Position numbers and translations under genes: made by a program. From Perna viridis (taxonomy: Eukaryota), in assembly GCA_037379345.1 (NCBI GenBank), contig CM074516.1, forward strand, positions 47,281,626-47,345,625: a stretch of DNA of 64,000 bases. The letters run 5' to 3'. A model generated the notes under the pieces. That model saw only the letters and a program-made list of their open reading frames with translations, searched no databases and was not told the origin of the DNA. Positions 5,656 to 40,480 of this stretch are shown one piece after another; position 1 is the stretch's first letter; each line of letters starts with the position of its first letter.

Positions 5656-8641
5656 AGGATGTTTGTAATAAGGTGGGCTTTGCTCCTTACTTTCTGAAGA
5701 TCTTACATGGTGAAATCTATGATTATCATCCAATTGTAATGAGATTTTGTTAAGCTATCTGAAGACTAATACACCCCTTATAGACAGAAAATTAAGCAAT
5801 TATTTACATACAAATATCACTAATACATTGCTGTATTCTATATTGCAAAGTGAGAAATGGAATGATTAGTGAACACCTGATAACTGTTTCTATATCCCAC
5901 CATCAGAAAACAATATATGGTTTAACAGTCCACATGATATATGACAATCTGGTGAGGAAAATGAACGAGGTGACAACTGACTCATGGATTAATATGTATT
6001 ATTATAACAAAATACTATTCTAATGAATATTCATGAAATTATTATGCATCTTTCTATCTATAATTCACTTCAATCTTACTAATAACTGTTGTACTTATCC
6101 CAATTTTATTAATTGAATTACCATATTTTGGTGTGTATAATGCACATTTATGTATTGTACGCAGTAATCCATACAGGTTTTAACAATATATTAAATCTTA
6201 ATACTAAAGAATCTGCAAGATACAATTATAGATTCAATACTTTTCAAGTGTTGTTTTTAATATCAAATACAAAGACTAAATATGCAATTACTGACAGTGG
6301 ATTGTCAGAATTACTAACAGTGAATTTGTTAGATTTAATAAGTGCAATATAAAAACAGCAGTTCCATACCCCAGATGATAACATAGGGAGACAGTTTGTA
6401 TCATACTCTGTTAATATCTCAGTGATCAAATGGAAATGTGTATGAAGAAATAAATGTGACCATATTCCTACAAAGTTTTGTTTTGCAGTACATAAGCTTT
6501 GAGTATGTATACATGTACATCTAAGCAAATACAAATGGTTAAATAGAACAAAATAAAGAGACACTTGTGCTAACTATGCCATAAGGTTCTTAAATGTGAC
6601 ATTCAATGAGTATTTTAAAGGGAAAAGGTCACCTTCAAATAGAGGCATACTCAAACTACAAAATGAGAACTGACAAATTCCATTTTACATACTTTCTCTT
6701 TCAATGTTTTAACAGATTATAACTGAGGACAAAAGGAATAGTATAAATGCAGCATTGGTTATTCAAAAGCACATCATCAACCGATAGCCATTTTATACAA
6801 CTACTGTAACTTGATAAATGACCTATAATCATATATTGCAGCCACCCATCTAGGATCTTCTGCCTGTAGTGATGGATGTAATGGAAGGAGTCGTATCCTT
6901 AGCAACTAATATATCTTGGTCATAATGTCAGTGATGTAGGAATGAGTTAAACAGGCAGGATCCACTCACATAAAAAGCACCTAAAAATAAATAATGGTTA
7001 AATATAGAATGAAATGATGGGTTGGAAAACATAAATCACTAACAATTCTCATACCTCAAAACTAAGAATATATACAAAAAATGAATAACTTCCTGACTGC
7101 TGGAACCTTAGGAAATAGTTCTTTTCAAGGAAAATCAACAACCCTTACTCAAGTCCATCAGAAACATCCGTCTTTTGAAGTCACATTTCATTTTAAGTTA
7201 TATATATATATGTGTATCAATATCAATATTCATATTTACTCTGAAAATGAAGTGTTTCAAATGTCAGGCTTGTCATTTTTATCTAGTTATATTGCACACA
7301 CGTGATAAAGTAGTATTTGCACAGAATCACATCCATTAACAAAGCTATTCACTGATCGACAAAAAGTAAATCTCACACAACAGAAAATTACAAATAGATT
7401 GCTAATTTACTGCCCCCTTTTCATCATGCATGTAAGTTGCAGTGTGATCAAGGTTGGCTACGAGTTTCCTCCCGTACTATTACTTGACTATACAATAACT
7501 TACCATAACAAAATTCAGATCTTTCTTATATTTATTCTGTACTGTCTTTTCCCTACAAAAATGAGAAAAATAAATTTAACTGAATGGAAAATTTATACTG
7601 GTAACATAATGTTTTGATATGAAATGTCCTTGTATTTAACTGTGTGAAAATCTGAAACTAAAGAACATATGAATAATATCAATTAAAATACATATGTTGC
7701 TTTATATCAATTAAATATAACAGATAATGTCGCAGGTTAAACAAACATAATTCCTACAGAAAAGTACAATATTTATTAAAAGTAACTGTTTGTAGCAATT
7801 TTCATGGGTATGTCATACCAAAAACTAAAATCACTAATTTTACTCTGAAAACTACAATGCTATATATGAAATGCACATAAATTAAAACTTCATAAACTTT
7901 ATATTTTGCTCAACTACAAGATTTGATATTAAATTATTTACAACTGAAAGACCAATCACAGTACATGACATAGTTGTAGTACTATCATATTATACACATA
8001 CTAAGTATCTAAAGAGAAATATCTTGCTAAAATCATTATAAAAAATTTACCTGAAATATTATATAACACTATCAATGGTAAACGTCTGCTAAAACACACT
8101 TGCACATCATATGAATAAAGAAAAGATTAGAAATTGCACAAGTTGATTAATGTTAACTGCTATTATTTTTCATATCAACATCTAATTACTTCTGAGAAAA
8201 CTGGTACATTCAAAACTTCATGAAACTTATCTACACACTTTGAAGGCCCAATGGCATCCAACTGGAAATCTTTTTTTAATCAGGACAAATACTGCACCAT
8301 TCAGACAAACATTCCAGGTTATTATGTTCCATGGTATAACACTACATGCTGAACTGTCGTTATCTAATCTAGATAGAGGTCCAACTTCTGAACATAAAAA
8401 AAAAAACTGGAAACTGAACACTTGCTGTTTAACACCATGCCATTAAATCACTGTATAATTACACAATCCATAACTTTCATTATGGTAAACTGCACTCCAT
8501 GCAACCGTTTTTTTTTTTTTTCTCAATCATAACAAAAACATTACATTTTGTTAATATGCTGGTTGCTAGCTATTTCTTCTATAAATATTAGACAATACTG
8601 ATGTAACTGGATGTTGCACACCATGCAGTCATGCTTTTTAC

Positions 8642-9454
8642 CTAGTTATCCATCACTTCACGTCTACGACGACGTCTCCTCTCTGAAGCTGATTCCTCCT
8701 CTCCAGCTGCCTCAGCTTCTCTTTTAGCTCTCTCCTCACGTCTACGCCTTCTCCTTTCTTCCAAAGACTCAGAGCCTGATGGTTCTTCTTCTGCTTCCTC
8801 CCCTCGTCTCCTCCTTGTCGATGATGATTCTGCTTCAGCTGCCATGGCCTCTTCACGTTCCTTTTTCTCCCTCTCAAGTCTTCTCCTCCTTCTTCTGGCC
8901 TCTAGTGAGTTATCCTCCTCATCCATATCCACAGGCTCTGGTACTGCCTCTTCTACTTTGGGAGACTCCTCAACCTTTTCTTCTTTTGGAGGTTCTTCCT
9001 TTTTTTCCTCCTCTTTAGATTCTTCTTCTTTAGCAGGTTCTTCTACCGTTACTTCTTCCTTTACTGGTTCAACTTTTTCCTCTTGTTTCTCAGGCTCAGC
9101 TTCCTTTTCATCTGGTTTTGCAGTTTCTTCAATTCTGGATTCCTCTATAGATGAATCCTGTACCTTTTCTTCTTCTTTTTGTTTTTCTCCAGCCTTTTCC
9201 TCTATTTTAGATTCTTCAGTTTTTTCCTCAATCTTTTCAGTATCATCTGTCTTAGTTTCCTCTTTTGTATCATCTGATTTTTTCACATCCTCTTCAACTG
9301 TTTCTTCAGTCTTGAGCTCAAACGTAGCTTCTTCCTCAGTGTTTTTATCAACAGTGTCTTCTGCTTTATTGTCTGGTTCATCAATCGTTACATCCGATGA
9401 AATGGTAAATGTTGCAGATTCATCTACTTCATCTTTCTTTTCTTCTGAATCTTT
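8642..9454 (-). CDS. SH3BGR: SH3BGR large acidic/Arg-rich tail exon carrying the stop codon
   Basis: 813-nt open frame (part of ORF 8642..9511) starting after tttcaaag; KDSEEKKDEVDES...RRRRRRREVMDN*. Confidence 0.8.
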   Translation of the reverse strand, partial: KDSEEKKDEVDESATFTISSDVTIDEPDNKAEDTVDKNTEEEATFELKTEETVEEDVKKSDDTKEETKTDDTEKIEEKTEESKIEEKAGEKQKEEEKVQDSSIEESRIEETAKPDEKEAEPEKQEEKVEPVKEEVTVEEPAKEEESKEEEKKEEPPKEEKVEESPKVEEAVPEPVDMDEEDNSLEARRRRRRLEREKKEREEAMAAEAESSSTRRRRGEEAEEEPSGSESLEERRRRRREERAKREAEAAGEEESASERRRRRRREVMDN

Positions 9455-12400
9455 CTTTGAAATTAAGTATAACAATTTAAGAATTTGATAAGGATGTTCC
9501 TTGTTTATCATAGTAAATCGTGAATATTTTAGTGAATATTATGTTCCTTTTACATTGACCAGTTGAATGACTGACCAGATAAAAGTAATTTCAGACAGTG
9601 AAAAACAGAGTAACAAGATTCTGCGAAAGTTCCAAAGTAAATCTTATTTATAAAAGAGAGTTTTTGAAAGGTAAGTAATGAAAGGTGAAAGAACAAGAGA
9701 AAGTGAAAACTATTTCTGATATACTAGTAATTGTTTTAGAACTAATGAAATGAATAGACATGTACATGTATATGTTATTATTGTTTTTCTTTCCATTTGG
9801 GGCATGCTTTTTACAATCACCTATTTTTTTTTCAGTTGAAAGTAAACTTAATAAAACAGACAAGAAGATATACATTATAAAGATATGATCACAATCATAA
9901 TTGGTTAGTAACAGTGGACCTACAATCTATAGAAATAAGATTTTTAAGAATTAGTAACATGTTATTGAGGACGGTGCATTTCTTACACTTACTTCTTCAG
10001 TCTTGGCTTCTTCCTGTAATGCAATACAATTTGTTTTAATATAATATACAACACACTATCAATAAAAACTTATCAATAAAACCAAATATTCCTTTAGACT
10101 AACCTTACATAAGATACATGTACCTATGCCATCGTTATGAACCTATTCATGATATATATTTGCTAATTTTAAATTCTACACAAAAAATGTCTCTATCAAA
10201 CATATACAATATTCATATTCAACAGAATGTTATAAATGCAACAACAAAACAATCAACAATTCTTCCATATTCATAAAACTCAATAGACATATCAGTAATT
10301 ATATGTGATACAGCCTGTGATAATAATCCAATTTCAAGTTTCTGTTGCTTTTCTTTACTGGGAATGACATTAATTAAGTAGATTTTATTTGGAAATTTTT
10401 TCAAGTTTATCCTGAAATGCTTTATTTGCAGTATCTCGGGTCAAAGATTTACATAACAGGCATTCAATCTAAGCTCTTTTCAGATTTTTTTTTACCTTGG
10501 ATTCCTTCTCTTCTTCAACTGGTTTTTCCTAAGTAAGAATATTTACATTGTAAATACATTTAAAAACCAAAAAGAAATAGTAAACAGTTATCTTAAAAAG
10601 AACAAACATGAACATGACAAAACTTAGGAAGATTTTAATCTGACAATTTATATGTATTACTATAGGATTCTAAACCTTATGTGTCTTTATGTGTGTGTAA
10701 ATTTATAGTTTCCTTATAAATCTTTCCAATTAGATTATCCAAATGTAAAAGTATTCAAATAAAAAATTAAATACATTATTTCAAATTTTTCTTTATAAAA
10801 ACATGCAGAATCAAGAGAAGATGCTAACACACACACACACACACACACAATGATCCAGACACACACAAGCAATGATCCAGACACATACACAATGATCCAG
10901 ACACACATGCAATGATCCAGACACACACACACGCAATGATCCAGACACATACACAATAATCCAGACACACACACACACTGATCCAGACACATACACAATA
11001 ATCCAGACACACACACACAATGATCCAGACACATATACAGTGATCCAGACACACATACAATGATCCAGACACGCACACAATGACCCAGACACACACACAA
11101 TGATCCAGACTACTTAATCATTTATAATAACTATACAGGCATAGGTTCATTTGTAAAACGTACTGATACCAACATAAAAATAAAGAATTTAAACCTGCAA
11201 AAATCATGACAAGACAGTTAAATGTTGTACTACAGTAAACAATCTTAACTGAAAAGGTCCACACCATGCTGAGTACATATACTGGATAAGGTTTCTGGAC
11301 ATCTGATCAAAAACTACAGGAACACACACATCTTTCATAAATGGAAAGTTCTTGCCCTATTTATAGATCACACAGCAGTCACTTGTTCCAAAATCAAAGC
11401 ATGCCTTTTTTTTTAGGTTCCAAAAAAAGGTATCCAGAAAGAAAATGTGTCATATCTAGTAACATGCATTAATTGACCACTTCATGAAAACACTCAGAAA
11501 GAAAAAAATGTCATAGGAAATAAAACCCAAGGTAATAAAACCATGCCATCAACCTCAGTGGTAACCTTCTCCTCAGCTTTGTCCTTTTTATCTTCTGGTT
11601 CATCTGTTTTATAATCTTTGGATTCATCTGACTTAACCTCACTTTCTTCCTTTTCGTCAGTTTTTGTACCATCCTTACTATCAATATCATCCTCCTTTTT
11701 GTCATCTTTTTGTTCTATAACTGTTTCATCCTTCTTTTCATCACTTACTTCTTTTTTGTCATCTTCATCTTTCTTCTCGGTCTCATCTTTATTTTCATCA
11801 GTAGTTTCTGTTTTATTTTTCTCATTTTCTTTGTCTTCCTTTTCCTTTTCTTCATCTTGTTTAGCTACATCCTCTATCAACTCTGATTTTTCCTGAGATG
11901 ACAATATTTATGTATTTTCTCCAAATATTTAAAATGAACAGTGATAAAACATGAGAAAACCTGGCCTTTTTGTCTTTCAAATTCATATTTTATTGTAATC
12001 AAATGTGTGAAAAGGTAACAAATTGAACTGAAATCACTATTACGATGGGAGCATATAAAAGGTTTTATTTTTTTATTTGTTGCACAATTTTACTAAAAAT
12101 TATTACCACTAATTATTGGCTTTCATGGAATTGGACTACTTATTAATTGATTGATCAATTATAAATGAGAAGACAAGACTGTAGGGGTTGGGAAGGCAGG
12201 GGGCATGAGCCTTTTGCCCCTTCAGACAAAGAATGACCACTTCACATAAAAAAATTGATTTCCTTTCCAACCACTGAGACTGTTATTACAAATTGCACAT
12301 CTGCTAAATATACTACAATCACACACACAAATATCTTAAATCTAATCAAGTTACTGGTCATTTAAGTCTGACAGGACTCAGATGCAAACAAACAAAAACA

Positions 12401-15400
12401 TTACATCTAATCTATGCACTACATATAAAATCATTCTGCATTGCATATTTTTGAAAAATCTTAGTCCTATCCAAAAAGGAGATTACTTTCATTTACACAT
12501 GTTTATTCTCACTCTTTTACTGTAAACTATAAAAACAATCTAAATAACTTGTATATTTGACACACAATATAAAATACATTAATATCTTCTATTTCAAACC
12601 TCCATAAAACATTTTTTAACACATGCTAAAATGTGCAGGATTATAATAACACACACTGAACAATACCAACAACATAACATAACTAGAACTGTAACACCCT
12701 GCATATAAACAGTCTTCATATCAGGCACCAAACATTTTTAGTTTTGAATAAAACAAACAGATCTAAAATATCTAATTCAATAGTGATGTTTACAGACAGT
12801 AGTTGAACATGTATATTAGTTTTGCTTAACTTCTTTTACTCCAATAAACTCTAAGCTCAATTTACTACATGTACGAACATGTACACATCTAAATCCAGAC
12901 AAAAATTCAACTTGCTGTTAAAACTCATCAAATATTGTTTGGTGTGTACTATTATCTATACCAATTTGTATTCCTTATAAAGACTGTTGATGTCAGGGAT
13001 TAGTATAATAAAAACAAATCATTCAAGTTTAGTCAACTTATACTTTCAGGTGTAAATGATGAATCAAATTATCTAACTACATTTGTATATCAGTACCATA
13101 CTAGCACGCAAATGTCAACATTCTTCTATAGAAAATTAAATCTTTTCTGAAATCATCTGAAAATTCTGGAGAGATAATTAATATATTTCAATGAAACACC
13201 TTGAATAAAGTAAACTGGTAATAAATTAGACACCTTTACTCAAATCTCTTAAGATTAAAAAAAATTAGACATAAAATTTGTAAATTGAGATATGATAAAT
13301 TGAGATCATGTTAAGAATGAACTGTAAATGTAATTCATGCTCATGCTTGGTAACCATGGATACCTCGTCTTTCTTTTCTTCACATTCTTCCTCCTGATCA
13401 TACATCATTAAATTAGAAGTACAATGGTAATGTAGAAGTACAATGTTAATGTACATAAAACCCCAAAAACACCATAAATAATCAGATTTCAATAAATTCA
13501 TGTGTACATACATGTACATGAAAAATAAACAATTAAAATAATCCTCCAGTCCAGATATCCACACTTTACATTATTCATGGATGGATGAAAATCAAAGCAA
13601 GTTTAAGTTAGCCTCATTAATTTTTATACTTATATTGGTTTTAGACATCTGTAGTGATAATGTTTAAAAAAAACATGCTCATTCAACATTTTCTAACAAC
13701 TGAAAATAAAGCACAGTGTTCTCTCTAATACAGAAATGGAGAGGTAAAGCATCCTGTCCTCAAAGACCCAAGTATTGATAAACAGTGTCATCTAAGCCAT
13801 CTCTATACAAAAATACCATTGATGATTTCATTTTCCTTCAAATGCTTTATATACTATGTGTATTGTAACAATATGATAAATCTGAGAGTCTGTGGTACAC
13901 CATATGTCTAGCACATTACAAGCTTAAGTGTCCTGTTCCTGTGTCCCTCTTTTTTTTTCAGATCCTTGCTAGAACACTGAAGTATAAGTTTGCTCGGCTT
14001 GATTTTACTCTGAGTAATAACTGGGAGTACCAACAAGGTCAATCTGCATTGCATATATATACCTACTGATACCTAATGTAAATACTTCCACATATTCTTC
14101 TGTTTGTTACACCAGAAAAAAATATTCATTGAAATTAACCTTACCCCTGTCACAGTGACTGTTGCTTCACTCTTTTTTACTGGTGAGGCCATCTTTAAAA
14201 ATTCATACATAGTTTGTTCTTCTATGCTCATGTCAAAGTCTTCACAATCCTGTAAAAAATAAATAAAAAGATCTGTCATATTAAGGTCAATGTGTACAGT
14301 GTAGCCTTACCATATCTTCACACATTTTTTAGAGGTGTTCTTGGTTTTCAAGGAACATTCAAGTATAACAGTAACTGATCCACATGTAACAAGTTAATTA
14401 ATACATGTTTAACTTATTTCAGTAAATACATGTACTTGATTTTTTTGTGCAATTACAGTATCAATGTTTAAGAAATGTGGTACTTATATTACATATGTAA
14501 CATTTGAAGAAGTCAGTGAGGTGGCATTAATCAATGAGAATGACAACTGCAGCATGGAGAGTTAAAAAAAAATAAAAGTCCCTTCCTACCAACCCTGTTT
14601 TTTTCTTTGAGGTGACCAGAACCACACACATTTTTTTTATTTGGCCTCATCTCTGATACTTACACCACAATACTCATCATCAACAAATATCTGAGGTGGC
14701 AAAGGAACTGCTCCTTCCTTCTTAGTTTTACTATTTGCTCTCATAAATTTTTTAGGTTCTTCATTTTGTGGGTCAGAAATGTCAATTTCTTCAAAGTCAA
14801 TTTTTAAACTCTGTAATATATCCTTTATGTGCTGCTGTTCTTTTCTCATCTGCAAAAAAATCGATAGTAGATGATAATTCTATACATGTAGGTACAAAAG
14901 TAGATGTGGCTTTTTTGTATACAACTAAAAATATTGAGACAAACTACTTGTATAAACTATATGACACAGACATACATGTACACTTAGATCAGATATAAAA
15001 GTACATTTCTAGCTACAGTATCTGCTAGCATTTCAGAAAGTCAAGAAAAAAAGACTAGTACATGTATGTGTAGCAAATCATGACTGCTAACTTACACTAC
15101 TGTCAACCAAAATTTTATTTTCTCCCTTCTTAACAGTGGAGTCACTCATGTCCTCCACTGTGACTCCACTGTAACTCCACCTAAGTAAAAACTATGATGA
15201 AATTGCTCCATTTCTTAACTTTTCAACATTTTTTCTGTCCATAACTGAGAACTGTTATTAAACTGCTAGAACCATTGAATATACCTTGGTATAAAGACAG
15301 GAGTAGTAAACTATAAACACTTTTTGAAATGGTGACTCCACTCATATATCTCCAGTGTGGAGAGTGGAGTAATTAAAATTTGTGTTGACAGAAGTGTACA

Positions 15401-24400: not shown

Positions 24401-25590
24401 AAACAATTGACAATTTCATGATTAGAATTCCAATTTTCAAAACTTTATAACTTATTTATTTAATATCCAATTTTGGTTCTGCAAAATGTTTCATTTAGAT
24501 AAAATAATTTATGTTATGTATGCGAATTTTATAACTCTTTCGCTTGAAAAATAAATTTGTAGCGATATTTACATGTATATGTCTATCTCTATTTTTGTAT
24601 AAAATTTGGATTAAAACCTTATGTACATATAGTCTAATTACTGAATATTTATTTAAAAATTCCATGGATAAAAAGAATTTTATTTGCAATGTTGGGAACC
24701 AAAAGAATTCTTCAATTATCTTTAAAAATGAAAAAGTTATGATTTAAAGTTGATGCCCCATGCCACTCAATCGATTTTTTGCCACCCAAAACCAAGGGCG
24801 CATTTCTTTTACCCGAATCTGAAACATGATTCTGAATCATTTTCATGTTTCACTGTTTCTTTTACTTGAAACAGAAACATGATATCGTAACATTTGAAAC
24901 ATAAGTGATTGATGTTTCAAACTGAAACACAAACCGAAACCGGTCCCGATATTATTTTGCTTCGCTACCAAGCCATTTTGTTACTTTTGAAACATGTTTG
25001 TTTTGATAGAAACTGAAACATGTTACAGTTTCTCAAATGTTGTATTTTTAATCACCGAATCATGTTTCTGTTTTTTGAAACATTGTACTGAAACATTTTT
25101 CAGATTCAGGTAAAAGAAATGCGCCCCAGATCACTGGTAAGTGATTACATCACGAAGAACTCCTATTGTTAATGTTTAAATTCACTAGTTTTAGTTGGAA
25201 TTTGAAAATAGCATGCACAAAGAAAAGTGACATTATCTTCAGCATGTTGAAGTTGGTCAGGAGATTGTAGTAGAAGTAGAAGACATGAACATTCAATTAA
25301 GCTTTGGGCAATATTTTACTATTACTATTCCTTGATTTCAGCAGTACTACCAGTACGGCAGTAGCATAAAACACGAACTTTAATAGGTCTCGGCAAGAAG
25401 TAAGCTTAGACACGCGTATTTTAAGGGGGAATGTATCTTTGTCAATTACATAACATCTATTTGACATTAGTGGGTTTCTGTGACTGTGGCCCCGAGTGTG
25501 GGTGGGGCAAAACTTTCATGAAAAAAAAATGGTTTTTAATCTCACCTTGCTACTCCCTGCTACACTGGATATATATACTTTAATTACCAT
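8642..25590 (-). CDS. SH3BGR: SH3BGR-family protein (thioredoxin-like SH3BGR domain plus long Glu/Lys/Arg-rich tail)
   Basis: Core exons 25590-25546 (MVIKVYISSVAGSSK), 14849-14664 (MRKEQQHIKDILQSLKIDFEEIDIS..VPLPPQIFVDDEYCG) and 14249-14145 (DCEDFDMSIEEQTMYEFLKM..). Tail exons, all phase 0: 13393-13364, 11892-11554 (donor uncertain, alternative 11566), 10528-10496, 10013-9993 and 9454-8642 (stop TAG). PLPPQIF and YCGD are family motifs. Likely co-orthologous to vertebrate SH3BGR/SH3BGRL/SH3BGRL2. Confidence 0.9.
10827..11110. repeat. Compound (CA)n / AATGATCCAG minisatellite, about 13 units
   Basis: AATGATCCAGAC followed by a variable CA run; source of the spurious CV-rich ORFs. Confidence 0.95.
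11554..11892 (-). CDS. SH3BGR: SH3BGR acidic cassette exon (E/D/K-rich)
   Basis: Acceptor catctcag|GAA, 113 open codons EKSELIEDVAKQDEEKEKED...KVTTE, then a GT donor. Confidence 0.75.
15095..15396. mobile_element. MITE family A, copy 1 (TA-flanked)
   Basis: TIR CACTACTGTCAACCAAAATTTTA / TAAAATTTGTGTTGACAGAAGTG with TA on both sides; inverted homologue at 18761-19025. Confidence 0.8.
18761..19025. mobile_element. MITE family A, copy 2 (opposite orientation)
   Basis: Interior is the reverse complement of 15095-15396 (for example tttactactcctg..tttataccaaggta versus taccttggtataaa..caggagtagtaaa). Confidence 0.8.
20484..21128. mobile_element. Non-autonomous TIR element, copy 1 (about 645 bp)
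   Basis: TIR G(T/C)CAGCACTCCACAG...CTGTGGAGTGCTGGC with TTAA on both sides; near-identical to 21873-22519. Confidence 0.85.
21873..22519. mobile_element. Non-autonomous TIR element, copy 2 (direct repeat of copy 1)
   Basis: Perfect TIRs GCCAGCACTCCACAG/CTGTGGAGTGCTGGC; about 7 differences from copy 1 by eye. Confidence 0.85.
23250..24180 (+). mobile_element. 3' fragment of a CR1/L2-group LINE ORF2, interrupted by a hAT MITE
   Basis: LSFLKRNI..KVKEQAYKSLVRPSLEYACSIWNPY..IEMIQR before the insertion; SFFPKTTKLWNSIP (typical SFFPRT..WNSLP C-terminal motif) after it. Confidence 0.85.
23573..24049. mobile_element. hAT-like MITE (477 bp)
   Basis: Perfect 17-bp TIR CAGGGATTGACACTAAC/GTTAGTGTCAATCCCTG; flanks TCTCAG/TCTTAG form a 6-bp TSD with one mismatch. 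Confidence 0.88.
24796..25126. mobile_element. PIF/Harbinger-like MITE
   Basis: TIR GGGCGCATTTCTTTTACCCGAATCTGAAA / TTTCAGATTCAGGTAAAAGAAATGCGCCC; 3-bp flanks CAA/CAG; interior rich in TGAAACA/TGTTTCA motifs. Confidence 0.75.
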
Positions 25591-28918: not shown

Positions 28919-31900
28919 ATGGCTCACAGATACAGTGGATCTAGAGACAAAGATGATGATGATTACGATTACAGTGATTCCTTTATAAGTGATGAAGATG
29001 ACGAAAGTGTCAAGAAACATACAACAACACGTAAAGTAGCTCAGGGTATGTAGTTGCACATTTTATTAAAGGTACTGGTATGCTGACTGCAGAAAAAAAT
29101 GTGTTTTTCTCTTTGTCCTTGTATGTGAATTTTGACAAGTGATGAAAAAAATATTACCTTATATTCATTTTGTATTTTGTTCCACAATTAGTGGGTGTAG
29201 TAAACATCAGTGAAGTAGGCTTTTAGATCTACATTACTTTAGTCATAACATTGCAATTGCCAGACAAGGTTAGATTTTAAACATGAATTATAGCTTTGCA
29301 TGTAAAAAGTGCCAAATATAAGTACCTGGTACTTGGCTCTACATTTTTATAACACTTTGTAAGTATAAAAACCCTCTAGGATTAATATATGTATAGAAAA
29401 TTTACAATGCAAAAGTAACAAGTACATCTATTTCACCATGTACACATTACAGTAAAAGAGACAGAAAACTTCACATTGATGAATCACTGACACTTGTTAG
29501 CAAAGATAGGTTTTATGCTTATATTCCTCAGATATTTCTTTGAGGGTACATGGTTGAAAGTATTACTGTAAGCTGAGTGGAAATACAAACACACATTATG
29601 AACTTCTTATAAAAATACCTACATGTATATGATGAAGTTGAACCAGGCTGTATATTTCTACGTCAGACATGTTCTAGCCTGGGAAATATATGATTAGATT
29701 CTAAATAAATGATGAGACTATTGATTTGGAAACTTTGATTGGTTGGCACAGGGATGTCTTGCTTGACTGTTACAGAGATGCTTGAATAATTATGGAGACA
29801 ATATGCATTGTAATGGTCAGAAATGTGTTTCACATGTATAGATATATACTTTAAACTATTATTATATGTATAGTGGTATAAATAATTATACATTAAGTTT
29901 TTGTCATTTTTTATTTTGTAGTGACTGCACGAAAAAAGCCTCCTCCACACAGGGGCCCCAAAGGTAGAATATCAAGTAGGGCTACAAGTCAGTCACATGA
30001 ACCTAAAGTGGATAATGCAGTTCAGAGAATGTTGTCATCTAAAAACCTTCGTATTAATGAGCTGAAAAACCAAATTGAGGACTTTAGAATTAAAATGGAG
30101 GAAATGAGAGAGGAAAACAAATTGTTGCGAAAAACTCAAAAGAGACAAGAAAAAGCTTTAAACAAATTTGAAAATGAAGAAAGTGATTTGCCACAGTTAC
30201 TACAACGACATAACAATGAAGTTCGGACGCTGCGTGAACAATTAAAGAAAACTCAGGATAAATACCAACGGACAGACCGATACCTGCGGGATGCTGAAGA
30301 TGAGTTAGAAAAAACTAAGAGTAAAATGAAAAAGTATAAAAATCTTGTTGAAGATAAAGACTTGTTAGAAAGACAGGATTTACAGAAGAAATTACAACAA
30401 GCAGAAATAGACCTAGAAGAACGTGATGTTAAAGTTAGGGTATGTAACACAAATTTCTTTACCATCAATTTCTTTGTTGTAAATCACCTTTATAGGTAAT
30501 ACAACGTACCAATTAGGAATGAACACAAAAACAGCAATTTAATGTTGTATGAATTTCATATATATGAAGTTTCATTAACATTCATGAAACAGTATTCTCC
30601 CCAGACCTATATATATATCTGGTGAGCTGTGCGTTGCATTGCTATTATTTTTAGCGCTGTGCTATCTGAAATAAATTTTATTGAAAATGCACTTTTGGCA
30701 CTGGGATATAACATTGGAGCCTTAAGAGCTGTGCTATTTATGCACTTTTGGCACTGTGATATAACATTGGAGCCTTAAGAGCTGTGCTATTTATGCACTT
30801 TTGGCACTGTGATATAACATTGGAGCCTTAAGAGCTGTGCTATTTATGCATTTTTGGCACTGTGATATAACATTGGAGCCTTCAGAGCTGTGCTATTTAT
30901 GCACTTTGGGCACTGTGATATGAAATCGGAGCCTTAAGAGCTGTGCTATTTATGCACTTTGGGCACTGTTATATAACATTGGAGCCTTAAGAGCTGTGCT
31001 ATTTATGTCGTTAAGCAGTGTTCTAATTGTATAGTCCAGATTCTGAATTTCATTCAGCTAACCATTAACATACAAGTACTATATATACCAAAAATGTATT
31101 CTTTTTTAGAACTTAGTCAATTATTCTTTCTTGAGGGTATATAAAATGTTTTATATGCCCTGAACTTTGACATGTGATCAAAATACAGTACTGGTGAAAT
31201 GAATCTCTAAGGATTTGATTAAGTGATCTTGTTAATGCTGATTTCATGTCAATTTATCTATCTGACTGTATTCTATAATCAATAGATATTCTATATTAAC
31301 CTGTTTCCCAACATTAATTTTTCATTTGTTTGGTTTAATTTGATCTCATACTGATAAATGGACAGAGTCATGACAGTAGGATTATTATTTTTTATCTGCT
31401 TATAAGTATAATTCTATAATATATGCAAAAAATGACATGTATTTTTACCAAACACTTTATAATCTTAATGCAGTGGATTCCTGTTAATCACATAACCTAT
31501 TTGTCTGAAAAATATATATGCAGTTAACAGTAATAGTCATTTCCTGGGAAAATACCTGATGATTTCAATATTTTAGTTGGATATATTCTTCCCTCATGTC
31601 TAATTAGATTCCTGCTTTAGTGTCTAGTCCAAAGAAAGAGATAATATTGTTGTAAAAACAAATTTCTTAAGAAAACTGAGGTATTTCACTTACAATGTAT
31701 TGTTGTTTTACCCATTTAAGTACATTTTTGAGTAAATTTTGACAAATATTTATACAATAAAGAGGAATTTTCTAATTTTTGGTCTTAGGTTATGCAAGTG
31801 AGAGGATTTTTTTTACAATTGGATAAAATGCGAAATGTTTTTGTTCTTTTAGTTTTTTATGCAATTAGCAAGAATCTGCAATTAACAGGGATGTGATTAA

Positions 31901-34900
31901 GTGTTATCCACTGAAATGTGAATACATGTATTTCTAATCCAGGTTACTAGCATTTTCAGACACTTTATAATCTTAATTATAGTTCTAATCCAATTTACTA
32001 GCATTTTTTTTTAATATTGATGTCTTAATTTCTATAATCGTTACAAATGTAGATTTTTACCAATTTTCATTTAATTCTCAGAGGCACTTTATAAATTGAA
32101 TAACTGGGTAGAATGTATGATTTTTGTACATAAGTTCAAAGTCATGAATGTGTGATGCATATGGCACTCAATATGGCTGTTCCATTATTGATGTTAAAAT
32201 TATTCATATACATGTAGTTATTGTGTACATGTATTTAACAACATCTACTAGTAAACCAAAATGAAAATTAAATACAGGAACTAAACTTATGCCCTCTTCT
32301 TTGACGCTTTTTTCATATACTGATTTTAAGGTACCCTGGCATAAAGGTATTTCTAATCTACAATAATCATTGATCTTAAGCATACGACCAATCAACCATT
32401 CTTATCTTTCATTGATTGCCAATTTTTGGTATTCAATAATCCATTTAGATCAGTAAAAGTCACGACTGTAATCTTGATATCCCATTAATGTAGCCTAATA
32501 CGGTACTTGAGTTAAATAAACTACACTGAAATATGTTTTTGAAATAAAGAGCCAAGTGTACAGTTCATTACTTCTACAATAATGCTTACCAGTCTTTGTT
32601 AGTTACAAGTTTCATACAAGTATAATATGTGTTTGGAAAATTATATTTCAGCAGAGTTATATGCAATTCTTTCAAGATAAAATTCATCGGCTAGTACAAT
32701 TTAAAAAAAGATGTACAATAATCACACCATCATTCATAAAGCCATCAATGGATTTGCTGGGTCCTCCATCATGAGGATACATTACCCTACCAGTACACCT
32801 GGTTCATGCTTTTAGCTTTTGGTGGAGTCTTTCTATTTCATTGTTATATACATATTGATCAACTTTTGTATAGGGTCAGATATAATTTAGCTATATCATA
32901 AAGCAGAATTCATTGAAAGCTAGTGTGATGTCTCACTGGACTTAAAAATAACAATTAAAAGTGGTATTTATACATGTTAATTTGGCAAATATCTTTCTCC
33001 TGAAGCCTCATATTACATGTACATGTAATTAATTTTACTTTTTGTATGTTAGAAAAAAAATAAAGTAAGATGTTCTCATCTATTGAAATTACTAACCAAT
33101 TAAGGAATGACTGTTATATTTTTTTCAGTCTATGAAGAAATAACCTCAATTATGAACTGCACACCTGTGTAGCAGGTTATTTTCAAGTGTGCACCACGGG
33201 CATTGAGGTTATTTCAAATAGATCCCATAGAATATAACAGTCATTCCTTATAATTTAATTTTAGTACCAAAATTTGAAGAGTATATTATCTAAAAAACGT
33301 TTGTGACATCATTGAGTCACATTAAACTTTGGTCTTTGAGATGATGGACAAAATGTTTTATCCAATCAGAAAGCTTGTACCATGTACCTGAAATTAAGTT
33401 ATTACAAAGTAACATAATAAAAGTCATAATCTGTCTTGTCAGGTATACTGTGACCATATGATGCAAGACATCATTCTGAAACATGAGAAAATAGAGTTTG
33501 CCTCATGTCCACATGTACATGTGTACATGTATTCAGTTTGTCTTAGCTAAGGAACTCTTTCTTAGGCTATTAATGAGAGGGAGGTAATATTTGTATCCAT
33601 TTATAAAGTAAGGTTTAACTTTAGTAGCTTTGAGAAAATCTTTTTCAGGATTTAGAAAAGCATATAACCCATTTGAACAAGAATCATCGACATGAATTAG
33701 GTATAGAAATAGCTCGCCATCGTGACCTCCAGCGACAGATTGAGGGTATGCGGAAGGACAATGATGACCTACAGACACAATTAAAGGTAAGATAACGGTG
33801 ATATTGTCTGGCGTACACCAAATATTTTAGGGATTAATTTGAAGGCTTCGTTTATATTCAATAGTGAAATTTCAAAATGTGATTTATCCTTCAGGCAACT
33901 AAAATAAATGTTCAATTATAATTTGGACAATAAAATGAAGCATCTGTATTTGTCCATAAAATCACAGATTTTTTCTGTACTTCATTCGATATGACTCTTA
34001 CTTGATATTTAGAGCTTGTTAACCTGTCCCTTTAGTTACTGATAAAGATGTATTTCATTTACACTAGGAAAAGGTGAAAGCAGCAGAGTTAGCTAATATT
34101 TATAGTTTACGGAAGGGTAAGAAATTACCTGCATCTTATAGTGGAACACCTAATAGAACTCCTCCACCCATGAATGCAAGGAAAAGACACCCATCTCTTC
34201 ATGATCTAACACCAAGGGAGAAAGTGAAAATGTATGAAGACAAGAGAAAAGAAGAGGAGAAATTGCACAGAGAGGTATAAAAGTTTTTACAAACATGATA
34301 TAAATACAGGTGCAAAAACCCTGAATAGATTGTATATAGTAGAATTTGAATTGCATGATCTTTTGAGATTAACTTTTTGTGGTTAAAGCACTTTTCCTAC
34401 TTCAAAGTTCATCTCAATAGTTCTATCCCATTTCTCATTATTTGTAGATATTAGTATTTTTTCTGTTGTTTAAACAGTCAAAGTGTACATTTTAGTTTGA
34501 GATTATCAGAATATGCTTTATGCAATTAGCCAAATAAGAAAGTTATTTTCATGCTTTTAAGTCAAATTGCAAATTTTACAGATTTAGTTGTTTAGTATAA
34601 ATTTTTTTAAATGTCTGACAATGCAAAGTTGCTTCTCACTTAGATACCATTTTATTTTTATTTTTAATCTTGTACCATCAAATATCTAGTGTCTTTTGAT
34701 GTCAGTTTGGGAGGTGAAGGATACTAATTTTTAAAGTTAAAAAAGGCATCTTGGTTAAATATACTGTGTAATTTCCTATAGGTGTTTTGGACAATTAAGG
34801 AGGTTAGTTGTCTTTTTGGCTTCCACAATTAATATTTCACTCTCTGTGGTCACATAGGGATGAGGATTGCATGTTATGGAAGGTTGTGTACTTTAAGTTT

Positions 34901-37900
34901 GCCTGTATTCACTATTGAAGGTGTTATGATTTTTGCATGGGATAAGGTTTGCTTTTATTATGGTGTATCTGTTGTAGTCAGAACCCTGCACATGGTAGCC
35001 ATTACACATTATAAATCTACAGCTCAGCAGTAATGAACTCTGTCTACACTTTGTTAAACATATTATGTTACGTTTTTTCTTACCCAAACAGTTTCAATAA
35101 ATAACGAAAAATATTTCTTACCCTAATGGCTAAAGTAAGGTTAAGACGAACTATTTACACTAAAAATTTATTTGATTACATATCATTAGATGTACAGTTA
35201 AAGCTATGTTTTAATGGTACCACACACACCTTAAACCTGCTTCAAGCTTTACATTGTCTTTGCCTGTAGAGAGGGGATGGACCAAAAATGGCCTTCCAGA
35301 CAACAGGGAGTAACAATCGGGTCATTCATAAGTCATCACCCAAAAAACAACTGACTTATAGAGCTCCTCCTAAAACTGATTCAGACAACAGGGAGTATTA
35401 TGGTGATAATACATATAATAGAAATGATTTGAACTCGTCTGAAGACAGACGAGATCACCAGGGGTCAAGTTATATTACAGATCCCCATGGTTACAACACA
35501 TCACAGGAGGTACAATTTTGTTGGTTGTTGTTTCCCCCTTTGTCTTCCATGGCACACTTTGTTGTTATGTTCATCTCACTTATTTGTTGTGTTTATTTTT
35601 ATTTTTTAATTATCTGTATGCATGGAATTATAGTTATCTATTGGTATCAAAACACTTTTGTTTTGATATGAAATTTTTTAGATAAAAAAAGATATGGAAA
35701 TGACATGCAAGAAAGACCTCAACCTACATCTTCACAGTTGCCTTGTACAAATTGTATTCTTATGTTCAAATTTTTCATGTTCACAAGAACTTTGACATGT
35801 TTTATGAAAAGAGTCATATTGGCATTTTGAAAAATTTTAACTGTTGATGTATTTATTAGATCAACAAGAGTTCAGAACAGGGTGTATTCTCTAAACCAAG
35901 GATGTTTGGGAGTAAAAACAAGGATCAGTCATATGATCAGGTAGCTTTCTGTGTGGTCTCAAGAGTTATCTACCTTTACTAAATTTTTTGACAATATCTC
36001 ACTCTCATTATTTTTCTTTCTGAAAAAAAAAATTATGGACATTTTCAAGTTACAAATATTGAAATGAAATGACACATTCTGATGCATTGTCATGCACGTA
36101 ATTTGTTTTTTAGAATTATATGAAATAATTGAATAGACTTACTTACGTTCTGACATGGCTATAGGTTTAGACCTTAAATGTTTTATCATACAGTAAATGA
36201 TGCAAAATCTTAAAATACTTTTTCTGTAATCTTTTACCATTTCTAATAATAACATTGCTTTTATATGCTATTTAGTAAGTCTATTTTTTTGCATGATTTT
36301 GTTTTTATCAGAAACCAAGGCAATATGACAATGATGTATTTTATAAACCTATGAATCGCCAGAGGGATACAAACCCCTATCAATCTGTATATGACAAGGT
36401 AGAAATCTATGTGTGGTTCCTCTCAGTCCTTTTGTCTTGTTTCATCGATGTTAGCTGTATGTACTATTAATTAACCATATTCAGAAACAAATAGACACTG
36501 TTATGGTTTGTCAGAGTTGCAGTGATTTAGCTTGTTCATGCAACTTTGTTGTGATTTACATGATTGAATTTGTTTCTAGAAATTTTGATTTGATTTGTCA
36601 CATCTTGATCTTCTAACATGCTTCCCTGTCTAATGACACTGATGTGGATTAGTTTGTTCTCTCACATCTCCCAGCTTTCTCACATTTCAAATAAAGATGA
36701 CCTTGTATATATGTCCTTCAAACATGATTTTCCATCTATGAAATCATTTAAGTACTTGCATGATTTTTTGCTTTAGAAGAAAGATCCCCATTCTGACTCT
36801 GTGTTCTCGAAGCCACCTCTACACAGGAGGGGAGATAACTCCAGATTTGATCAGGTACCGTGGAGTACTAATAATTTCACAGTTCATGAGTTGAATCACT
36901 TAATTTGTGTTTTAACTCCTTTGTATCAAATTTTCAATTTAGTTATCACTGATTAAAAACATTGTTACTGATTTGATTTGTCTTAGATGTGATTTGAATT
37001 TCAGAAAGCAGATAGAATTTTGTTCTGATTTTTATACATGTATATAACCTGTCCTTTGATAGACTTTTTATGATATACTGCTGTCTCTTTCTGTTCACCT
37101 GTTCACATGTATATGTCAATATACTGTACAAAACTTTTTAAGTAATACTTTAAAGGATTTTAATGATTTTATGAGATAATGTTAGTCTTAATTATTTTCT
37201 CTTTTTTTTTTTGAAGGGTGTGTGGAATATAGTGGGGGTCAAGCTTGTTTTCAGAGTTATGGGTCTCGTAACACAGAAAGAGGGGAATAATTTTAATATG
37301 TGCTTTAAAGAAGCTGTTTATTTGTTTTATTTGTCCTTTGGTATGGTAGTTTATACTGCAGTTTAATTCTTCATTGTAGTGTAACTTTGTATGAAGCTTT
37401 AGATAGATTATACTGTGAGTGACTTTTGTCTTGGCCTCATATTAAATATCTGTCAACTGAATTAGAGGGCATCCATGTTTTATTGGCAAGAATGGAAGAA
37501 GTCATTAATTTATTTAATGAAGAATAACCTTAAAATTGTAAAAGTATTGTTATCCTTTATTTGTTTTGTTTTCAATGAATACAGGGAAAGGGGGCATGCT
37601 GGGTATGTGCAATATTTTACTCAAGTAATTTTTTTTTTACCTTTTTAATAAAGTTAGAAACTAGTGTCACCAGATTGTGTCAGCTTGTTGAAGTGGTAAT
37701 GATACTTTATAATAGAGAAATATTACATGCTAAGATGTTATATGATTTTGCATGATATGTTTACATTACACTTTAAGTTCGACCGATGCTTAAGCCTGCC
37801 AAGCATATATTAATCACCAATATATGTATGTGGACCAGTAGATCTCCGTGCATGTTTTTTTAAAGTACCTTTCCTTTCTTCCAGTAATGCTGGATCAAGC

Positions 37901-40480
37901 TAAGGCCATGTCATCATTTATTTGTGGATAAGACTGTCTTGTGGAATGTAAATAATATTTTTCTTGAAACTTATTTCATTTTCTCAAACTTTTCTCTTTT
38001 CGATAAATAAGGAAATTATCTAAATTAGATTTTACTGCAAGTATGATAGTATGGCAATATTTTCTTGAAAGTGAAAGAAAGTTCCACTGTTTTTTGTCAG
38101 AAAAAGCAAAGAGCTAGTCGTCAAAAGGAAAAAATCACTGCATCATCTACCTTCCTCACAGAGAGCCATGAATACTATCCCTCTCAGCCCTCAAGTGACC
38201 AAAGTCCTAAGGTACATCTTTGTGTTCTCAGTAGTCTCCCTTTATAGCATGTATATGTATATATCTTTTTAATTCTTGCTGTAGATTTTAGTATGGATAT
38301 AAGCTTTCCAAGTCATGTTGCCTGTAATATTTGTGCTTCTCTCTGTCAATTATCTGTCATTTTTTATTACACTGTGAGTGTTTCTGATTAACTTCTTGTG
38401 TTAGGATTTGACAATTTTGTTTTCATTCATTGAATTAAAACATTTGATAGATGTGACACTCTATCCTGTCAAATACTTGCTGGTAAGCCTTTTGAAATGT
38501 TTTGAGACAGATTGAGTGGTAAATAATTCTGCTCCCTGCCTGTGGTAAAAAAAATGGTCTAAATTTACTGAATAGAAACAAGAAAAGAAAAGAATGTGAT
38601 TCCATATTGAGAAATAAGTTGATATAAAAAGTGGTTTGGTGAGAACTGAAAAAAAAAAAAGAAAAGCACGTATCTACCGAACAATAATATTGTCTTAAAT
38701 GTCCAGTGGTATTCATTGTGTTAAAAATAATGCTAAATTCCCCTCCCCCTACACACATACACAAACCAAAAACCATAAAAACAAATCAAATGAAAAATTA
38801 CAAAAATACACACAAGTTAGATAAGTGAACTTTTCACACACATAATCATATTTAGCATAGTCACATACTGACCACATATCTTAATTGTTATTACTCTAGC
38901 TTTATGTGTATGTTTGCCTGTCAATTCTTAAGTTAGAGTTTATAAATGCTGTGTTACTGTAACATATTTTTAGTTAGACACTATGTTGTTTTCTTTTAAT
39001 ACATGAATCTTACAATTCTATGTCACTATATAATATTTTGATTGAAGTTTGTTTGACATGAACAGAAACAGCAACACTTTCTTAATTGTATACAAGTACT
39101 GTTAGCACTACTCTTAATATTTTGAATTCTCTATGAAGCATTTAGTTACATTCTAACATCTATTACACATATTTAATGTTTATTCATTTCTTTCATCCAT
39201 TTATGATTCTTTTCAGTAATGATAGTATGTACACACAAATGATAATTCAAGTTTATGAAAAAATAAGAGGGCAGCAATATAAATGAGCTGAAATTTTTTT
39301 TTTATTAATATTATTTAAATCACATTTTCAGAATCAAGAACGCCAGAAGAGAGAAAGGGAGGAACAACAGAGACAGAGAGCAGAGGAGGAAGAGCGCAGA
39401 AGACAACGAGAGCGGGAGGAACAAGAAATGAGGGAGTTAGAACAACTGGAGGTTACAAGGAGACAAAGAGAAGCAAGAGAAAGGGAAGAGCAACGAAAAC
39501 GTGATCAGGAGGCAGAGGATTGGATGAAAAAGATGGAGAATGAAAAACGACAGAGAGAAGCGGAAGAACAACGGGTTCGTGAGGAGCAGCAGCGTAAAGA
39601 AAGAGAAGAGAGAGATAGAAGAGAACGTGAAAGACAGGAACAGGAGAGAAGGGCAAGGGAAGAGAAGGATAGAATGGCAATGGATTCACAGCTGGCAGAG
39701 GAGAGAATGAAAAAGGATGAACTATTAAGGAAGTTGCGCATGATTGATGAAGGACAAAATAAAACAGAGGAAAAGAAATCCTCTGGGGGTGAACTATTTT
39801 TTGCTACCTCTTCTAAAGCTAGGCGAGATAGTGAAGGTTCAGCTACATCTAGCAAGAAAAGTAGTTATTCTTTTACCAAACCTGTTGAAAATATGCATCA
39901 TGGGAAACCTGCCAGAGAGGATGTTACAGTTCCTTACATTGAACGGCAAAAGAAACAGCAGGCTGAGTCACCAGTCAGCGGCTATCAGCCATCATTTGGT
40001 CTTAGTAGTGGAATAACTGGTACAAATAAGAAGACAACCAGAAAGTCAGGAGGTCAGGTTATTTTTGGTGATTTTGAAAAAGAGGACAAAACTGTCAATA
40101 AATCAACCAATAAAAAGGGTGACTTAATGGCAGAATTGTTTGGCAATTCTTCAAGCAAACCAACACGAACAACAGAACTTGATAATGATGATATATTTAA
40201 ACCTCCTGTAAGAAACACAAAAACAAATGCAACTAAAACATCAGGTTTCCCATGGGAAGATGATAAAAAATCAACTACTACATCACACAGGGGTGAGCGA
40301 GCGTCCTCTTTATTTGGAGGAGGAGGTAGTGGCATATTAGACGATAATGAACCTTCTGTTTTTGATTCATCAAAACTGTTACCGAAAAGAGGCAAACAAA
40401 CAAGTACAACATTCCAGACTAAGCCTGTAGTGTCAGCAATAGATCACATGGATGATGATATCGAGGAGGTCATTTTGTAG
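28919..40480 (+). CDS. LCA5: Lebercilin (LCA5/LCA5L family) ciliary coiled-coil protein, about 910 aa if all exons are included
   Basis: Exons 28919-29045, 29922-30439, 33649-33786, 34068-34274, 35270-35509, 35860-35940, 36312-36398, 36777-36854, 38101-38211 and 39332-40480, all GT-AG and in phase. Lebercilin-domain motifs QRMLSSKNLRINELKNQ, RQEKALNKFENEESDLPQLLQRHNNEVRTLR, EKVKAAELANIYS, GYQPSFG, KKGDLMAELFG and the C-terminal DDIEEVIL. Confidence 0.92.
30688..31006. repeat. 53-bp tandem repeat, 6 copies, in an LCA5 intron
   Basis: Unit TGCACTTTTGGCACTGTGATATAACATTGGAGCCTTAAGAGCTGTGCTATTTA. Confidence 0.95.
31470..31913. mobile_element. Decayed MITE
   Basis: CAGTGGATTCCTGTTAATCACAT ... ATGTGATTAAGTGTTATCCACTG inverted ends. 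Confidence 0.5.
33101..33250. repeat. Fold-back (hairpin) element
   Basis: 20-bp perfect arms TAAGGAATGACTGTTATATT/AATATAACAGTCATTCCTTA, with inner arms AAATAACCTCAAT/ATTGAGGTTATTT and TGCACAC/GTGTGCA. Confidence 0.8.

Follow-up and report, generated by a model that had tools for sequence, protein, structure and literature searches.

An SH3BGR-family gene of the green mussel Perna viridis with an alternatively spliced acidic tail and GCATG clusters behind three of its tail exons

In a 64,000-nucleotide (nt) stretch of the Perna viridis genome (contig CM074516.1 of assembly GCA_037379345.1, positions 47,281,626 to 47,345,625; hereafter "the window"), one SH3BGR-family gene carries an acidic protein tail that is assembled from alternatively spliced exons. 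By sequence and RNA-like contigs, the gene lies on the minus strand and comprises exons E1 to E10, with the coding part of E1 at 25590 and E10 seen down to window position 5800 (Table 1). We hold with modest confidence that E1 to E3 encode a predicted actin pointed-end capping core to which splicing adds the acidic tail, and that RBFOX likely drives the use of E4, E5 and E8. The finding itself is real, well supported and built of known parts; multi-isoform acidic tails are common in the SH3BGR family and similar isoform sets are already annotated.

Splice junctions were taken from contigs of 8 of the 23 listed runs, i.e., seven RNA-like runs (studies P1, P2, P3, P4 and P6) and one DNA-like run (X16); the RNA nature of the former was taken from their GT-AG junctions, as no run was recorded as RNA. 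Run X18 duplicates the depths and variants of X1 and was not treated as independent; runs X21 to X23, with a share of 0.00, fell outside the set. Fifteen distinct GT-AG junctions were observed across the seven RNA-like runs; 14 of 15 joints in the first junction list and 12 of 13 in the second were GT-AG, the new one in the second list joining long E5 to E6. The DNA-like control X16 covers the stretch and contained none of the 12 GT-AG joints of the second list. A processed gene copy was rejected as the source of the junctions (two PF04908 loci in the genome, one match to the E8 region and no GT-AG joint in X16).

The E3 to E9 junction, which skips all tail exons, and the E6 to E7 junction were each present in all seven RNA-like runs, and E7 to E8 in six of them. 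Junctions E3 to E6, E3 to E7 and E7 to E9 occurred in X5 and X8 only (both from study P3), E8 to E9 in X1 and X18, and each of the two E5 donors was used in one run; a single X13 contig runs unbroken through E3-E4-E6-E7-E8 and on to position 8087. The tail exons are thus alternatively used, and the microexons are spliced in, as a first-pass annotation of this DNA had anticipated. Computed products include proteins of 118, 125, 136, 410, 458 and 523 amino acids (aa). The 118-aa product of the E3 to E9 junction is tail-less and was seen in every RNA-like run, E6 contributes 11 residues and E7 a further 7, and use of E4, E5 and E8 gives chains of approximately 400 to 520 aa (410 aa from the one unbroken contig and 448 aa in a published form). 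The contig junctions therefore also bear out the earlier proposal that a single gene yields a short protein resembling SH3BGRL as well as tunable long ones. In the literature searched, with subscription journals outside its coverage, we found no work on splicing of the tail or on regulation by RBFOX for any invertebrate SH3BGR gene.

The positions that the first-pass annotation had given for E4 to E8 were confirmed, and its description of five phase 0-0 tail exons holds for E4, E5, E6 and E7, each of which is flanked by AG and GT and has a length that is a multiple of 3. E8, on the other hand, ends exactly on TAG, with a GT donor directly behind the stop, and is thus a stop-carrying exon and not a frame-preserving cassette. 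Exon E9 (7504-7552), the inner E5 donor at 11749 and the acceptor at 8387 had been absent from that annotation.

Downstream (U)GCAUG motifs promote exon inclusion by RBFOX. All 11 CATGC positions listed in the first-pass annotation were exact, three of the 11 sites being full TGCATG. We assessed the 300 nt behind all six alternative exons (E4 to E9), flagged or not, with the expectation taken from the window's own rate. GCATG ranked first of 1,024 5-mers (13 observed as compared to 1.73 expected; P = 4 × 10-8), and none of 3,000 dinucleotide shuffles or 200,000 random placements reached 13 occurrences, which upholds the claim of a density above background. By exon, two GCATG fell within 300 nt of E4, four of E5, five of E8, one of E7 (at +186), one of E9 and none of E6. 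The E8 cluster is the densest 300-nt GCATG cluster in the window, and the E8 and E5 clusters are the top two on either strand. Moreover, region 8340-13400 holds 15 GCATG on the sense strand and 3 on the antisense strand (4.9 expected), whereas intron 1 lacks such a bias (10 sense and 16 antisense). A further cluster of three GCATG within 300 nt is found at 52127-52676 on the minus strand.

The proximal downstream (U)GCAUG excess is thus found behind E4, E5 and E8, and the motifs flag these three exons and not the microexons E6 and E7. As the excess is sense-strand, downstream and close to the donors, i.e., in the known RBFOX activating position, RBFOX control of these exons is likely. RBFOX binds UGCAUG, has position-dependent effects in introns and is bound to 3' untranslated regions (UTRs) too, in the available text of PMC8742874. 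The E5 and E8 clusters may be intronic or lie in a 3' UTR, as both exons can be read through. It is possible, if unlikely, that, as RBFOX sites, the motifs chiefly affect the 3' end (which last exon is chosen, and how stable or how well translated the mRNAs ending in E5 or E8 are) and not cassette inclusion. Nine of the 11 motifs sit behind E5 or E8, X13 contigs pass both donors (8087-9454 and 11256-12074), a Mytilus isoform terminates in E5, and fly Rbfox1 binds 3' UTRs (PMC8742874, available text). However, the first motif lies only 8 nt behind both the E5 and the E8 donor, the intron from E8 to 8387 removes four of the five E8 motifs, and the E4 motif pair is purely intronic. The E5 read-through contigs could also be unspliced RNA.

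We regard it as rather improbable that the long or microexon forms belong to a nerve or other non-muscle programme, with E6 and E7 dependent on a neural microexon factor. Neural microexons measure 27 nt or less, and only E7 (21 nt, TGC at -10) combines this length with an upstream UGC, which E4 (30 nt) and E6 (33 nt) do not. The TGC at -10 and the weak pyrimidine tract of E7 are features of eMIC exons as described in the accessible portion of PMC8797185, and E3 to E6, E3 to E7 and E7 to E9 are confined to the two study P3 runs, where they occur without E4. A single TGC is nevertheless weak evidence, since the constitutive E2 carries one as well; moreover, absence from contigs is not absence, and the long E8 form comes from a muscle-rich mantle (PMC6641155).

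That E8 is translated is established by two mass-spectrometry peptides in a published mussel proteome, assigned there to a mantle transcript (PMC6641155). The supplement of that study holds a Perna viridis mantle contig of 448 aa with the form E3-E5 short-E6-E7-E8, of which 400 residues were visible and match the gene by eye, except for two positions that fit variants in the run contigs; the mantle is dominated by muscle genes according to the authors (PMC6641155). Asp and Glu make up 40% of the tail (119 of 298 residues), and its last part (8645-8910, minus strand) shows four Arg-rich runs with acidic stretches between them. Tails of Pinctada and Dreissena carry repeated modules too, in sequence unlike the mussel E8 repeats.

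It is highly improbable that the long acidic form is a calcium-binding shell-matrix protein: although its two E8 peptides come from the nacre fraction and the tail is rich in acidic residues, the N-terminus is a cytosolic SH3BGR fold with no signal peptide visible by eye, acidic tails occur in shell-less relatives too, and the nacre table also holds histone, EF1-alpha and myosin light chain, proteins of a kind that have been called contaminants, as the authors note (PMC6641155). Splicing noise in a low-complexity tail combined with chance clustering of motifs is equally remote, for while GCATG is enriched 1.36-fold across the whole window (124 as compared to 91 by dinucleotide expectation) and the tail sequence diverges fast, P is 4 × 10-8 even at the window's own motif rate, E8 is translated, and Mytilus, whose core is 69% identical, retains the microexon lengths and three isoforms.

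The putative capping role is drawn from the human proteins. In the available text of PMC12827327, human SH3BGRL proteins cap actin pointed ends, blocking growth at nanomolar levels, with joint binding with tropomodulin possible, and the paralogues differ mainly in a C-terminal stretch that may contact tropomodulin. In the reading of an RBFOX-driven tail on a capping core, the short form would be a general cap. RBFOX bound to the GCAUG clusters behind the E4, E5 and E8 donors would raise the use of these exons where RBFOX is abundant, likely in muscle and perhaps in nerve; E6 and E7 are likely under a second programme. RBFOX-rich cells, likely muscle, would extend the cap by a long polyanionic arm whose end is basic, changing the partners of the cap; the tail, which is likely disordered, may alter the work of the cap with tropomodulin or tropomyosin and thereby tune thin-filament ends. 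For the mussel gene, a capping role, regulation by RBFOX, a bias towards certain tissues and a function of the tail are all inferred.

Several observations weigh against this reading. E6 and E7 lack GCATG clusters, leaving E4 as the only flagged tiny exon, and the largest clusters follow E5 and E8, exons that apparently also serve as last exons. In the published 448-aa form E8 is present without E4, and the flagged exons are thus not always used together. The long-form protein appears in one of four supplementary tables of PMC6641155, that of the nacre fraction, and not in the muscle-attachment-layer data of these tables. Contigs indicate presence only, the tissues of the runs are given as codes, and contig depth does not serve as an inclusion level. 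Two metagenome scans for motif conservation in relatives gave 590 and 267 pattern matches, none of them confirmed; a search of the genome for Rbfox via PF12414 gave no match, but this domain is uninformative and the result is not evidence of absence. At the actin-contact positions 8-17, 39, 40 and 46, which were modelled and taken from the available text of PMC12827327, the mussel core is identical to mammalian SH3BGRL at 4 of 13, most others being conservative, and muscle SH3BGR falls outside the assays in that text. The role of E8 is a guess, because no homologue was detectable: a word search with residues 165-270 (7,990 candidates), Atlas and Pfam searches, and BLASTP against the Pinctada tail (best E 5.9) found none, all of these being weak tests for low-complexity sequence.

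Family membership is supported by E2, which scores 59.8 bits against the PF04908 profile (curated cut-off 21) and contains PLPPQIF, and by the absence of Cys from protein positions 8-17, where the thioredoxin active site would lie. The E2/E3 junction (14664-14669 and 14244-14249, minus strand) encodes Cys-Gly-Asp-Cys, a CXXC located off the thioredoxin active-site position; its second Cys is replaced by Tyr in Mytilus. The core is 69% identical to the Mytilus galloprovincialis protein, and the best PDB matches of the Mytilus orthologue are SH3BGRL (78 bits) and SH3BGRL2 (68 bits). Vertebrate SH3BGR, SH3BGRL and SH3BGRL2 formed one clade in a 31-row tree (support 100/99, LG+G4; 4 of the 12 rows of this clade source-named and the others labelled by clustering, with no vertebrate SH3BGRL3 row) and in a quick tree that kept 135 of 165 stored proteins (support 98); invertebrate branches were mostly without resolution. 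One-to-one orthology with vertebrate SH3BGR thus does not apply, as the three vertebrate paralogues form a single clade. SH3BGRL3-like genes formed their own clade (100/100, 31-row tree), and the mussel genome holds a second family gene of this kind, whose bivalve relatives are named SH3BGRL3 and have SH3BGRL3 as best PDB match (86 as compared to 39-54 bits).

Lebercilin exons (PF15619, 147 bits) lie at 29897-40480 on the plus strand, head-to-head with E1, and the two genes may share a promoter region; CHD5/GET1 exons (PF04420, 48 bits) follow beyond lebercilin at 47217-47531 on the minus strand. Human 21q22.2 holds GET1, LCA5L and SH3BGR together (PMC12147916, available text). The GET1-LCA5-SH3BGR trio of this region is kept in the mussel. 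Its orientation is presumably the same in human 21q22.2, and we take an LCA5-SH3BGRL2 pair to lie on human chromosome 6. Overall, the mussel gene lies outside the vertebrate clade, is apart from the SH3BGRL3-like genes and shares its neighbours; by tree and synteny it is a co-orthologue of vertebrate SH3BGR, SH3BGRL and SH3BGRL2.

Elsewhere in the window are helicase C-terminal exons (PF00271; 164-1500, plus strand), an ORC3 exon (PF07034; 55030-55332, plus strand) and a fragmented gag-pol stretch resembling a long terminal repeat retroelement (57625-61323, plus strand; by eye only). Within the gene, 28 nt separate the short-form stop from the E9/E10 junction and 49 nt separate the stop of E8 from it, distances that are so short because E9 has only 49 nt; both fall under the 50-55 nt from stop to junction of the mRNA decay rule. 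The E5 read-through would add a hydrophobic end of approximately 17 residues before its stop, which may be a membrane anchor or merely T-rich intron sequence.

Table 1. Exons, GCATG clusters and second family gene (window coordinates unless a locus is named)
Feature	Position	Strand	Evidence
E1 coding part, 15 codons, 45 nt	25546..25590	-	Sequence; loose contig ends run from E2 to E1; in published mussel contig
E2, 186 nt, SH3BGR thioredoxin-fold core with PLPPQIF motif	14664..14849	-	Pfam PF04908
E3, 105 nt, core end; shared donor for E4, E5, E6, E7, E9	14145..14249	-	Junctions; E3 to E5 from published contig
E4, 30-nt cassette exon	13364..13393	-	E3 to E4 and E4 to E6 in X13, X14; E4 to E5 in X1, X18
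Two GCATG at +18, +24 behind E4	13336..13346	-	Motif scan
E5 short, 144 nt, inner donor at 11749	11749..11892	-	Junction to E6 in X5; published contig
E5 long, 339 nt, weak donor	11554..11892	-	Junction to E6 in X14 only, contig depth 4
E5 read-through to stop; possible last-exon form, putative hydrophobic end	11494..11553	-	Unbroken contigs X1, X8, X13, X18; Mytilus isoform ending in E5
Four GCATG at +8, +87, +150, +285 behind E5 long donor	11265..11546	-	Motif scan
E6, 33-nt cassette exon	10496..10528	-	E6 to E7 in 7/7 RNA-like runs; 11-aa Mytilus counterpart
E7, 21-nt microexon, TGC at -10	9993..10013	-	Junctions; 7-aa Mytilus counterpart
E8, 813 nt, 270-aa acidic segment, Arg-rich repeats at end	8642..9454	-	E7 to E8 in 6/7 runs; two mass-spectrometry peptides
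Five GCATG at +8, +16, +140, +202, +293 behind E8	8345..8634	-	Motif scan
E8b, non-coding alternative downstream exon, 3' end not fixed	8086..8387	-	E8 to 8387 in X1, X14, X18; X13 reads E8 through to 8087
E9, 49 nt, six codons and stop; end of short forms	7504..7552	-	E3 to E9 in 7/7, E7 to E9 in 2, E8 to E9 in 2 runs
E10, 3' UTR exon, seen to edge of examined stretch	5800..6980	-	E9 to E10 in 4/4 runs of first contig listing
Second family gene, SH3BGRL3-like, core with same three-exon layout, 92 aa, no tail, stop in exon 3	C12, L002 1513-2877 and L004 8940-8984

Of the 109 representatives (from the top 150) in which the core motif could be recognised, 45 have an acidic tail, the named cases including four bivalves, Octopus, Lingula, a bryozoan, mosquitoes, Drosophila and amphioxus. 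The computed 118, 125 and 136 aa equal the lengths of three Mytilus galloprovincialis isoforms, and Mytilus records also contain E4 and an isoform ending in E5. An E4-like peptide is present in Mytilus edulis, Tegillarca and Sinanodonta, and among the 109 representatives it stands right behind the core in three (a freshwater mussel, an Octopus-grouping protein and amphioxus; shuffle rate ≤0.005), by a pattern defined after these three cases had been seen. In catfish, SH3BGR occurs as four tail isoforms, and mammalian records vary in a segment of approximately 25 residues.

As acidic tails are widespread and vertebrate SH3BGR still splices its tail, the tail is probably ancestral and the vertebrate split partial. 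The first-pass annotation had suggested that a division between short and long forms was later split between vertebrate paralogues; such a split is possible because the gene is co-orthologous to all three, but vertebrate SH3BGR tail isoforms remain and a separate short SH3BGRL3-like gene exists. After the vertebrate duplication, the tail exons would have been retained in SH3BGR and lost from SH3BGRL and SH3BGRL2, and the mussel gene may show the ancestral state later spread over three vertebrate gene copies. More tentatively, and with considerable doubt on our part, a single pointed-end capping gene linked to GET1 and LCA5 could have existed in the bilaterian ancestor, its acidic tail being switched by RBFOX; the first exon of this tail would survive as the E4-like peptide, and vertebrate genome doubling would have made the switch into paralogues. 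In that case, the mussel gene would allow the unexplained effect of the SH3BGR tail on thin-filament ends to be studied at one locus. Natural forms with 6, 13, 24 and approximately 300 to 400 tail residues stand on one core, and the role of the tail is therefore directly testable. Pointed-end capping by SH3BGRL was shown only recently (PMC12827327, available text), and the mussel locus gives tail variants of that fold. If the RBFOX reading is true, the locus would be an example of an RBFOX-type code in a mollusc, and also of splice forms that were later divided among vertebrate paralogues.

Compared to vertebrate SH3BGR, which is found in heart and skeletal muscle and has a Glu-rich C-terminal extension, the mussel gene has a core 45% identical (primate protein), an acidic tail with splice isoforms, and the same GET1 and LCA5 neighbours; it differs in also making a tail-less form and in a tail of up to 300-400 aa with Arg-rich repeats at its end, and the tails are not visibly alignable. 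Vertebrate SH3BGRL and SH3BGRL2 (TPEC and TPEC-2) resemble the mussel short form in their PLPPQIF motif and similar size (118 aa), but they are separate short genes, whereas the short mussel protein is a splice form. SH3BGRL3 (TPEC-3) belongs to the same fold family but corresponds to a separate gene in the mussel genome. Other invertebrate SH3BGR genes (Mytilus, Lingula, Octopus, bryozoan, mosquitoes, Drosophila Sh3beta-like and amphioxus) likewise encode acidic tails, several with numbered isoforms; their tail sequences are lineage-specific, and their isoforms are known from database annotation. Finally, the mussel exons share with RBFOX target exons (vertebrate Rbfox1/2 and fly Rbfox1) sense-only GCAUG clusters within 300 nt behind alternative exons, whereas in the mussel only three of 11 sites are full UGCAUG and two clusters can fall in a 3' UTR.

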